A DNA stretch of 61,930 nucleotides from a virus, in the IMG/VR virus record IMGVR_UViG_3300013099_000022; one strand, written 5' to 3'. Shown piece by piece: positions 57,919 through 58,864 of this stretch. The position numbers and the translations under genes are program-made. Each line of letters starts with the position of its first letter. The stretch's first letter is position 1. Below the pieces are notes generated by a model. That model saw only the letters and a list, made by a program, of their open reading frames with translations. It searched no databases and had not been told where the DNA came from.

Positions 57919-58320
57919 TTATGATGAATAATCATCATCTTCCCAAGTTAATATAACTATCATTTCTCTTTGAAAACCAGATACCATTATAGGAGATTTA
58001 GTTAATATATCTACTTGTTTAATTTTATCAGTTTCTGGGTGATTGTTTAATTCACTCATGAATCTGTATTCTTCGTGTACACTCATATGTGCTTCAGGAA
58101 ACACAAAGGTTAATTCTTCTGGGTTTTTTAATGGTTTATGATTTAAAACTGCATCAATATTTACCAATCCCATCTGTCTCATATTATCAAAAAATTCATG
58201 TCTTGGTGGTCGATATTTAACTACTCCAACACGAACTTTAAAATTATAAAGTCCTTTATCTTCATAATTAATACTTCCTAACATGTCGTCAAAAACATTT
58301 GTCATTGATTTAATATTCAT
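57919..58320 (-). CDS. Hypothetical protein (133 aa)
   Basis: ORF track. Confidence 0.4.
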   Translation of the reverse strand: MNIKSMTNVFDDMLGSINYEDKGLYNFKVRVGVVKYRPPRHEFFDNMRQMGLVNIDAVLNHKPLKNPEELTFVFPEAHMSVHEEYRFMSELNNHPETDKIKQVDILTKSPIMVSGFQREMIVILTWEDDDYSS

Positions 58321-58864
58321 TGTGACTCCTTATTTTTATATATTCATATGGAATATCATTTACCAACCAAACATTATTTTCAGATTTATAAAATTTATAA
58401 CCATCCTTAATCATTTTATCACATGAAATAAACAAAACTATTGGTTTACCATGACGACTTCCTACATGCCAAGCTATAGAAATAGATTCACTAAGATGAA
58501 CATATTGTCTATTTTGTTTAGTTATACCTTTCTTTTTAATACTATCCATAAATCGAATTGCAGTTCCATGAAATAATCTCGTTGGAGGTTTAATAGGTTC
58601 TAACCCCAAATCAATATCAATTGAATGACCCTGATTTGCTCTAATCATAGTACTACTTAAATTTGAAATAAATCTCTGTTTGTCATTTGTTTGAATTACA
58701 ATATCAATAACTTCTTTGGTTAAATTAAATTTGGTTGTTTTTTCAATTAATTCATCAATTGAACACCACCCGTTTTCACTTAATTTTATACCTATTGACT
58801 CTGGTTTATGTCTAAGAATATAACTAAGATATTTTGATATTTTTGTTAATTCTTCTTGTTTCAT
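58310..58864 (-). CDS. kptA: RNA 2'-phosphotransferase (Tpt1/KptA)
   Basis: ISKYLSYILRHKPESIGIKLSENGWCSIDELI, HGT, RQYVHLS: the Tpt1 signature motifs; 184 aa. Confidence 0.8.
   Translation of the reverse strand: MKQEELTKISKYLSYILRHKPESIGIKLSENGWCSIDELIEKTTKFNLTKEVIDIVIQTNDKQRFISNLSSTMIRANQGHSIDIDLGLEPIKPPTRLFHGTAIRFMDSIKKKGITKQNRQYVHLSESISIAWHVGSRHGKPIVLFISCDKMIKDGYKFYKSENNVWLVNDIPYEYIKIRSHNEY

Follow-up and report, generated by a model that had tools for sequence, protein, structure and literature searches.

The stretch of DNA analysed here (61,930 nucleotides, referred to as the window) was found to contain a gene for Tpt1/KptA, the NAD+-dependent RNA 2'-phosphotransferase, which raises the question of what such an enzyme does in a phage and whether it acts together with three other genes of the window, encoding a LigD-type 3'-phosphoesterase (PE), an HD phosphohydrolase and a KH-domain protein. 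A sequence-only reading had joined the four as one RNA end-healing toolkit, in which the junction sealed by a Trl1-like ligase retains a 2'-phosphate that Tpt1 then removes. All four genes were found on the minus strand where that reading had placed them, and their families were matched well above the Pfam thresholds. The account favoured here, at a probability of roughly 0.55, is that the phage carries an old, dispensable and intact Tpt1 for RNA repair and that the PE, HD and KH proteins are not part of its unit.

The source of the window is an uncultured jumbo phage, with related contigs of up to 247-270 kb, a multisubunit RNA polymerase of its own and a GC content of 0.273 in the window. 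The visible sequence comprised the 62-kb window and about 25 kb of flanks, which is about one third of the genome. Of the 87 ORFs in the window with 50 aa or more, 80 were covered by the Pfam scan (all seven left out were shorter than 80 aa); in the flanks, ten ORFs were scanned with Pfam, and precomputed Pfam hits were used for the remaining called genes. Megablast of positions 55000-61930 matched none of 50,697 phage records, and an exact-match scan of genome contigs found nothing. A scan for tRNA genes found none in the window and none in six related loci, and a promoter scan of the window returned fewer sites than were returned from shuffled sequence.

Identity and active site of the phage Tpt1

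The Tpt1/KptA gene (58310..58864, minus strand, 184 aa, assigned by homology) was found to match Pfam PF01885 at E=1.7e-49 with 168.7 bits (cut-off 26) over profile positions 3-176 of 177, phrog_5470 at E=4.3e-69, and the NCBIfam equivalog NF002014 at 234.8 bits, slightly below its strict cut-off of 239. Among the solved structures, the Tpt1 of Runella slithyformis (PDB 7kw8) was matched at E=1.5e-47 with 45.7% identity and that of Clostridium thermocellum (6e3a) with 40.4% identity. The phage-encoded protein shares with these bacterial KptA enzymes a length of 178-184 aa, an end-to-end two-part alignment and the catalytic Arg-His-Arg-Arg tetrad. The tetrad of the phage protein was found to be R18, H19, R64 and R119, invariant in the Tpt1 alignment, and it corresponds to the R16/H17/R64/R119 reported as catalytic in Runella (PMC6097658), which agree with the residues of the 7kw8 chain and were all four kept. 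The motifs LRH, HGT and R.HVHL, named from the sequence beforehand, were recovered as ILRHKP (R18, H19), FHGT (99-101) and NRQYVHLS (R119, H123). The gene product is, judged by these alignments, a bona fide RNA 2'-phosphotransferase homologue of full length with a predicted active site that is intact. Its GC content of 0.261 fits the composition of the genome.

Tpt1 is encoded in 98 records of deposited phages and in 234 contigs of IMG/VR, so that the rarity in phages claimed for this chemistry had been overstated. KptA in jumbo phages has already been discussed and a role in NAD-dependent tRNA repair predicted for it (PMC7824862, PMC9503650); phage KptA had thus been predicted beforehand and its role in phages is so far a computational prediction; no experimental test of any phage Tpt1 was found in the searched literature. 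The KptA proteins of the Erwinia Alexandravirus group and of Clostridioides phage phiCD211 (phrog_5470) belong to the same family, being 41-52% identical across more than 90% of the protein length, and are likewise lone genes among small ORFs of unknown function. The present gene differs from them by its clade-wide fixation beside a helicase of the replicative module and by the existence of a natural pair of strains with and without it. The neighbours directly flanking Tpt1 in other phages were mostly unknowns, with no recurrent partner.

The Tpt1 locus in related phages

A Dda/RecD-like SF1 helicase gene (58866..60098, minus strand, 410 aa; Pfam AAA_30, AAA_19, UvrD_C_2 and PIF1) was found directly upstream of Tpt1, with a single base between the helicase stop codon and the Tpt1 start, followed on the other side by an ORF of 133 aa (57919..58320, minus strand) whose first 11 nt overlap the end of Tpt1. 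Tpt1 is probably co-transcribed with the helicase. A consensus scan returned a terminator-like hairpin (15-bp stem, T run) at 55401..55438 (minus strand). It lies downstream of the HD gene and of an ORF of 63 aa, before the clamp-loader gene, and the helicase-Tpt1-HD transcription unit may end there.

In three diverged relatives the gene that comes next after the Dda-like helicase was again found to be Tpt1, and the gene order SLT, helicase, Tpt1 and then clamp loader was conserved in the relatives L107 and L108. The identities in L107 were 73.7% for the helicase, 74.4% for Tpt1 and 74.0% for the clamp loader, and those in L108 were 45.5%, 67.2% and 54.6%, respectively. As the same site is occupied in diverged relatives and the gene has diverged in step with the core genes, Tpt1 is ancestral in the clade, and a recent insertion was considered and rejected on account of that shared site. 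By these comparisons Tpt1 is an old resident of the phage clade, fixed directly after the Dda-like helicase, and its sequence clearly points to purifying selection.

A 247-kb NCBI genome of 99% identity (JAPOGZ010000001.1) was found to lack Tpt1 cleanly. The present/absent stretch of 540 bp (58321..58860), defined by blastn against the Tpt1-less genome, by the junction sequences and by the gene tables, is bounded by ATGAA, the sequence with which both Tpt1 and the ORF after it start. Tpt1 alone differs between the two strains in the compared stretch from helicase to clamp loader, and the strains differ elsewhere by other cassettes. The Logan contig L013 was found to contain a second, independent Tpt1-less junction, and Tpt1 was also absent at the same site in the relative L106. 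Since the 99%-identical strain has deleted exactly the Tpt1 gene, the gene is taken to be dispensable. The 133-aa ORF, for which no Pfam or PHROG match was found, was kept in the Tpt1-less genome and is therefore not a dedicated Tpt1 partner. The same genome was found to keep the PE, HD and KH genes, a result that parts Tpt1 from the toolkit in which the four had been placed.

The phosphoesterase, KH and HD genes

The PE gene (45841..46338, minus strand, 165 aa) was found to match LigD_N PF13298 at E=8e-18 as well as the archaeal structures 3p43 (MbaPE) and 3p4h (CkoPE). The six essential residues of this family are the metal ligands (two His and an Asp), a phosphate-binding Arg and His, and a Tyr (PMC3082917). 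Five of the six were found to be kept in the phage protein as H11, H19, D21, R23 and H58, invariant in 19 clade members, whereas the sixth position, the Tyr of characterised PEs that is most important for the 3'-phosphomonoesterase step (PMC3082917), was found to be occupied by Glu62, which is nearly invariant in the clade. The phage protein thus resembles MbaPE and CkoPE as a stand-alone domain with the same His/His/Asp metal ligands and phosphate-binding Arg and His, and it differs from them by the clade-conserved Glu in place of Tyr, by a C-terminal extension of about 50 aa and by its setting in a phage, between RuvC-like and RNR genes. The PE is a stand-alone protein. The window showed neither Ku nor a domain of an ATP-dependent ligase, and the stand-alone archaeal PEs are likewise without NHEJ partners (PMC3082917). 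The homologues found were 50 metagenomic ones; the PHROG families include none for this protein, and tblastn matched none of the 50,697 phage records. The PE family is absent from current phage protein catalogues and is the less expected part of the find. A 133-aa protein of phiCD211 annotated as "ATP-dependent DNA ligase", encoded near the kptA of that phage, was tested as a PE homologue and found not to be one.

The order RuvC-like, PE, rubrerythrin and RNR was conserved in the distant relatives L111 and L113. The KhpA-like KH-domain gene (37364..37651, minus strand, 95 aa; KH_KhpA-B PF13083, E=4e-15) was found directly downstream of a RecA/UvsX-like recombinase gene and holds the same position in distant relatives, where the order RecA, KH, 187-aa ORF and PD-(D/E)XK nuclease was found in L018, L111 and L113. 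From this synteny, PE and KH are both assigned to the core of the conserved block for DNA replication, recombination and repair in the clade, and the proposal that both belong to an RNA repair unit is not supported by their fixed place there. The PE would most likely heal DNA 3' ends by removing 3'-phosphates or 3'-ribonucleotides.

The stand-alone HD/HDIG phosphohydrolase gene (55752..56504, minus strand, 250 aa) was found to match Pfam HD PF01966 at E=1.5e-15 and TIGR00277 HDIG. Its closest solved relative was found to be PgpH of Listeria (Lmo1466, PDB 4s1b; E=3.9e-31, query positions 20-234 against 4-221 of the 222-residue chain), a c-di-AMP phosphodiesterase, and the HHS, YHD-GK, QHHG and DSVEA motifs of the PgpH HD domain were found to be kept. 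PgpH contains an N-terminal 7-TM sensor domain, whereas the phage protein has no membrane part. Because the protein resembles PgpH, unlike the HD-Pnk of end healing, cyclic dinucleotides are more likely to be its substrate than RNA ends. The HD gene was absent at this site in the relatives L106, L107 and L108, Tpt1-bearing ones among them, and its casting as an RNA end-healing partner of Tpt1 is not upheld.

The window was also found to contain an Acb2/Tad1-like gene. A DUF4326 gene (47313..47585, minus strand, 90 aa; Pfam DUF4326, E=6.5e-27) was present in both of the 99%-identical strains. For the DUF4326 family, a function in the processing of phosphates carried by ADP-ribose derivatives has been predicted (PMC9503650), and the gene is a possible link to NAD/ADP-ribose metabolism.

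Proposed RNA repair and its alternatives

An RlaP nucleotidyltransferase gene (PF10127, E=1.5e-8; phrog_388, E=2.5e-22; similar to T4 NrdC.11) was found in the same strain about 7 kb beyond the window end. RlaP works on damaged RNA 3' ends (PMC12776372). The Tpt1-less strain was also found to be without the RlaP island at the matching place, in a single strain comparison, and RlaP was not found near Tpt1 in the relatives L107 and L108. The repair set of phage T4 contains Pnkp, Rnl1, Rnl2 and NrdC.11, which is RlaP, and the likeness to it lies in RlaP, which is 27% identical to NrdC.11 from T4-like phages (RB49, for example); no homologue of T4 Pnkp or Rnl was found in the readable sequence. 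RNA repair in T4 leaves no 2'-phosphate and does not need Tpt1 (PMC6097658).

The search for the missing enzymes gave the following picture. No RNA ligase (Rnl1, Rnl2, RtcB or Trl1-type) was found by Pfam in the 62-kb window or in the flanks of about 25 kb, and no match to the 2H families LigT, 2_5_RNA_ligase2 or CPDase was found in the window or flanks; motif scans of all window ORFs gave no KxDG ligase candidate and no convincing 2H candidate with a double HxT/S. The expectation that ligase and kinase lie outside the window agrees with the Pfam scan, which found neither there. Beyond the window, the search yielded no ligase and, for the kinase, only weak generic matches: neither the window nor the flanks contained a clear polynucleotide kinase, and a 209-aa P-loop protein of the flank (L001, 876-1505) was found to have weak generic kinase matches only (AAA_18 at 28 bits, adenylate or shikimate kinase at E 1e-3 or weaker), with no tblastn match in deposited phages. 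The sequence extends past RlaP for a further 5.3 kb (L103), which contained an HNH-endonuclease-like protein of 307 aa and membrane ORFs and no ligase. The 2'-phosphate-forming ligation proposed for this phage thus found no Trl1-type ligase or 2H cyclic phosphodiesterase in the window or flanks, and Trl1-type chemistry in the phage is a conjecture.

The neighbourhoods of other viral Tpt1 genes were surveyed at 27 non-redundant loci (ORFs within 10 kb). On the RNA side, the neighbours were RlaP (3), RNA_ligase (2), Thg1 (2), AAA_33 (2) and Metallophos (2), followed by NAPRTase (2), NAD synthase (2) and CTP_transf_like (4) on the side of NAD supply, and NUDIX and NADAR were also found to recur. 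The earlier proposal of phage RNA repair therefore survives in part, through the intact Tpt1 homologue, the RlaP of the flank and the RNA-repair genes near viral Tpt1, and it is not supported as regards the four-gene unit. In the favoured account, Tpt1 would by homology attack NAD+ with the 2'-phosphate of an RNA, and its role would be to clear 2'-phosphates from RNAs, probably tRNAs, that were broken by host ribonucleases. It would cooperate with the RlaP of the same strain, and a partner ligase would sit elsewhere in the genome or come from the host. Terminal 2'-phosphates are removed poorly by the closest solved Tpt1 (PMC6573784), so that a role in simply cleaning RNA ends cannot be taken for granted.

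An alternative in which Tpt1 is an ADP-ribosyltransferase of an NAD/ADP-ribose arms race, for instance one that caps the 5'-phosphate ends of RNA or DNA with ADP-ribose, is considered unlikely. In vitro, Tpt1/KptA enzymes attach ADP-ribose to nucleic acid ends that carry a 5'-phosphate, although the physiological relevance of this reaction has been called unclear (PMC11833690). The fixation of the gene beside a DNA helicase of the replication module and the presence of the DUF4326 and Acb2/Tad1-like genes in the window are in its favour, as are the NAPRTase, NAD synthase, NMNAT-like, NUDIX and NADAR genes near viral Tpt1; however, neighbours of NAD salvage are equally expected for an NAD-consuming repair enzyme, and the presence of RlaP, RNA ligase and Thg1 nearby speaks for RNA repair. 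A further reading, in which the PE is a phage-specific variant enzyme with a new job, is decidedly improbable; it draws on the clade-conserved Glu in place of Tyr and on the lack of a PHROG family and of matches in deposited phages. The new job would possibly be to free the ends of phage DNA from ribonucleotides or 3'-blocking groups in recombination-dependent replication, or possibly the degradation of phosphorylated nucleotide immune signals together with the neighbouring Acb2/Tad1-like and DUF4326 genes. In parallel, the conserved pairing of Tpt1 with the Dda-like helicase might, in this reading, stem from a function tied to replication or to ADP-ribose capping and not from tRNA repair.

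That the four genes form one toolkit is very improbable. All four domains are present, the Runella Tpt1 works on internal 2'-phosphates, its cluster contains HD-Pnk together with a ligase unable to join ordinary 3'-OH/5'-PO4 ends (PMC6097658, PMC6573784), and a P-loop kinase-like gene and RlaP were found in the flank of the same strain. However, the genes lie 2 to 21 kb apart, and to the strain comparison, the synteny of PE and KH, the PgpH-like HD protein and the ligase and kinase searches described above is added that the phage Tpt1 does not have as neighbours the HD-Pnk, ligase and MTase-HIT genes of the Runella cluster (PMC6097658). Finally, a functionally neutral passenger gene, as its loss without other change in the 99%-identical strain and in L106 might suggest, is hardly credible for a gene with an intact catalytic tetrad and the composition of its genome that is kept at the same site, at 67.2% identity, where the helicase is only 45.5% identical.

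The toolkit had been over-joined: PE and KH go with the DNA module, and the HD protein resembles the phosphodiesterases of the cyclic-dinucleotide type. The locus itself gives no answer on the role of Tpt1/KptA in organisms without yeast-type tRNA splicing, for which the natural pair of strains with and without Tpt1 offers a handle.

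The four ORFs and the genome that encodes them

The four ORFs named in the sequence-only reading were all found to be real, each at the position assigned to it and with a family match far over threshold. The NAD+-dependent RNA 2'-phosphotransferase Tpt1/KptA (58310-58864, minus strand) was matched by PF01885 over profile positions 3-176 of 177 (E=1.7e-49), and was aligned end to end with the solved Tpt1 structures of Runella slithyformis (7kw8, the closest solved relative; 45.7% identity) and Clostridium thermocellum (6e3a; 40.4%). The Arg-His-Arg-Arg tetrad, essential in Runella Tpt1 (PMC6097658), was conserved as R18, H19, R64 and R119.

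The window was found to have a GC content of about 27% and nearly all of its genes on the minus strand. Homologues of the RNA polymerase subunits beta (1363 aa) and beta' (779 aa) were encoded within 19184-26988 (minus strand), separated by a staphylococcal-nuclease-like gene of 115 aa and two ORFs of unknown kind; genes for topoisomerase II, a RecA/UvsX-like recombinase, ribonucleotide reductase (RNR), a clamp loader and a Dda/RecD-like helicase were also present. No near match to the window was found among 50,697 deposited phage genomes. It shared 99.2-99.9% identity with a portion of a 246,859-bp metagenome-assembled contig at NCBI (JAPOGZ010000001.1, hereafter the NCBI strain), and proteins identical to those of the window were also found on contigs of up to 269,986 bp. 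The source is an uncultured jumbo phage, known from metagenomes only.

An 849-aa protein in the 9408-14723 region (minus strand) was found to contain major-vault-protein shoulder and vault-repeat matches (PF11978, E=5e-19); it is adjoined by an AAA ATPase and a VWA/DUF2201 metallopeptidase-like protein, a trio unusual in phage. A homologue of QueD/PTPS, suggestive of 7-deazaguanine metabolism, was found with a small protein near it that bears the N-terminal methylation motif of prepilins (3236-3664 and 4403-4780, minus strand), and a radical SAM gene was noted in the flank L003. A sugar-nucleotide cassette of five genes (39601-43955, minus strand, GC 0.227) was found to encode a CMP-sugar synthetase-like protein (CTP_transf_3), a transaldolase/FSA-like protein, an unknown protein of 233 aa, a radical SAM-SPASM protein and a KdsA-like DAHP_synth_1 domain fused to a methyltransferase. 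The cassette may act in modifying DNA or the cell surface, and is precisely missing in the NCBI strain, where RNR is directly followed by a 67-aa ORF. Both strains contained a 72-aa gene of the Acb2/Tad1 hairpin family (about 47576-47794, minus strand; PF24729; phrog_1454, E=6.5e-26), a family to which phage sponges of immune signalling nucleotides belong, adjoined by a DUF4326 gene (47313-47585, minus strand). DUF4326 is predicted to process phosphates on ADP-ribose derivatives (PMC9503650), and together the two genes resemble a compact counter-defence unit.

The PE, KH and HD proteins

The stand-alone LigD-type 3'-phosphoesterase (PE; 45841-46338, minus strand; LigD_N, E=8e-18) and the KhpA-like KH protein (37364-37651, minus strand; KH_KhpA-B, E=4e-15) were kept unchanged in the NCBI strain, which lacks Tpt1. 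Even in relatives with a PE of only 59-64% identity, the order clamp loader, primase-like, FEN-like exonuclease, gp13-like, RuvC-like, PE was found, followed by rubrerythrin, RNR, RecA/UvsX, KH, a 187-aa ORF and a PD-(D/E)XK nuclease. By this gene order, PE and KH are fixed members of a DNA replication and recombination block. Known PE enzymes heal 3' ends at DNA breaks, taking off 3'-ribonucleotides and 3'-phosphates (PMC3082917), and this chemistry together with the gene context points to DNA, not RNA.

About 50 stand-alone relatives of PE, all metagenomic, were found, several on contigs of 138-270 kb; no PHROG family was found for PE, and tblastn against the deposited phage collection gave no match. 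Five of the six essential residues were invariant across the clade, whereas a Glu (E62), nearly invariant, stood in place of the active-site Tyr of characterised PEs, and the clade proteins are extended by about 50 aa at the C terminus. PE is the less expected part of the set, and its novelty is modest.

The HD phosphohydrolase (55752-56504, minus strand; family HD, E=1.5e-15) was likewise kept unchanged in the NCBI strain. It was absent between helicase and clamp loader in two diverged Tpt1-bearing relatives (L107 and L108), and at this site the HD gene was variable among relatives. Its alignment with Listeria Lmo1466 (4s1b; E=3.9e-31) spanned the complete HD domain, with the metal-site motifs kept. 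Lmo1466 is PgpH, the c-di-AMP phosphodiesterase. Both names are given in this context in PMC6398277. The phage protein differs from PgpH in having no membrane part, being a soluble copy of a PgpH-type HD domain, and could break down cyclic-dinucleotide signals. The strongest terminator-like hairpin of the region (55401-55438, minus strand; 15-bp stem, T run) was located downstream of both HD and a 63-aa ORF. The grouping of Tpt1, PE, HD and KH as one toolkit is not supported, given the retention of the last three in the Tpt1-less genome, the absence of HD at this site in L107 and L108, and the DNA block to which PE and KH belong.

RNA-repair context and the role of Tpt1

Among 80 of the 87 window ORFs of at least 50 aa, Pfam gave no hit to an RNA ligase, to RtcB, to a polynucleotide kinase or to a 2H enzyme, motif scans of the window gave no RNA-repair candidate, and no tRNA genes were found in it. 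The proposed 2'-phosphate-forming ligation chemistry is not supported, neither a ligase nor a 2H enzyme having been found in these window scans. The missing partners had been presumed to lie outside the window. An RlaP nucleotidyltransferase was found about 7 kb past its end in the same strain's ENA contig (PF10127, E=1.5e-8; phrog_388, E=2.5e-22; 27% identity to NrdC.11 of T4-like phages), with a generic P-loop kinase-like gene near it; the further 5.3 kb reached contained an HNH-endonuclease-like gene and no ligase. These genes, of which the HNH-endonuclease-like one encodes a Cys-rich protein of 307 aa, lie in a strain-specific island beyond 61930 (same-strain sequences L001, 1-5829, and L103, 1-9671), together with membrane ORFs and an ORF of 143 aa containing an LLYHGSS motif. 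RlaP adds nucleotides onto damaged RNA 3' ends (PMC12776372), and across jumbo phages it is reported to be distributed much as RNA ligases are (PMC7824862). In the NCBI strain the corresponding position is taken up by unrelated sequence, and therefore RlaP and Tpt1 are jointly present or jointly absent in this one strain pair; RlaP was not found near Tpt1 in L107 or L108.

Tpt1 was found to be encoded by 98 deposited phage records and 234 IMG/VR contigs. The best 80 loci, reduced to 27 non-redundant ones, were surveyed for neighbours, with ORFs of 250-560 aa taken in within 10 kb. RNA-repair neighbours at this distance were RlaP (3), RNA_ligase (2, plus a PHA02142 OB domain), Thg1 (2), AAA_33 (2) and Metallophos (2), and NAD-supply neighbours were CTP_transf_like (4), NAPRTase (2), NAD synthase (2) and NUDIX (2). 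Within 2.5 kb the neighbours were mostly unknowns, with NADAR, NUDIX, 2H/Acb1, AAA_33 and Metallophos occurring once each, and in phiCD211 and an Erwinia jumbo phage Tpt1 was surrounded by hypothetical proteins. From these surveys and contexts, phage Tpt1 is typically a lone gene, and its association with RNA-repair and NAD-metabolism genes is loose but real.

KptA in jumbo phages has been described in two comparative-genomics papers, which proposed NAD-dependent 2'-phosphate clean-up in tRNA repair alongside 2H, Macro and ligases (PMC7824862, PMC9503650); the sequence-only reading matches this prediction, and in the literature searched no phage Tpt1 was found to have been tested experimentally. 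Some Tpt1 enzymes take off terminal 2'- and 3'-phosphates, whereas the Runella enzyme does not (PMC6573784), and in vitro, enzymes of the Tpt1/KptA family also attach ADP-ribose to 5'-phosphate ends, an activity whose biological meaning is described as unclear (PMC11833690). Given these two points, the phage enzyme may act on internal 2'-phosphates, as first proposed, or may be an ADP-ribose-capping enzyme. For Tpt1 the sequence-only reading is partly right: an RNA-repair role is plausible, and RlaP is encoded nearby.

Presence and loss of Tpt1 among related strains

In the NCBI strain the helicase gene is directly followed by a 133-aa ORF, with exactly the Tpt1 gene missing (540 bp, window 58321-58860). 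The junction sits in an ATGAA common to both start codons and was also found in a separate Logan assembly, and the Tpt1-bearing form was found on ENA and JGI contigs. L107 and L108 contained Tpt1 at the same place, behind SLT and helicase and ahead of the clamp loader, with identities for helicase, Tpt1 and clamp loader of 73.7%, 74.4% and 74.0% in L107 and 45.5%, 67.2% and 54.6% in L108. A recent insertion is rejected by this shared site. Because the site is the same, the identities are like those of core genes and the GC content (0.261) matches that of the genome (0.273), Tpt1 is taken to be vertically inherited and under purifying selection, with at least two losses, in the NCBI strain and in a 202-kb IMG/VR relative (L106). 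By these comparisons it is old within the clade yet dispensable.

Between the HD gene and the clamp loader, the NCBI strain also contained an additional 468 bp that include a 160-aa ORF (window junction 55544-55552; 9300-9768 in its locus L011), and upstream of the HD gene it contained a different small ORF, of 62 aa versus 95 aa in the window. The helicase-to-clamp-loader stretch is a hotspot of gene gain and loss. The Tpt1-plus and Tpt1-minus strains also differ elsewhere through other cassettes; this natural pair of near-identical strains, with and without Tpt1, is the most useful result of the analysis.
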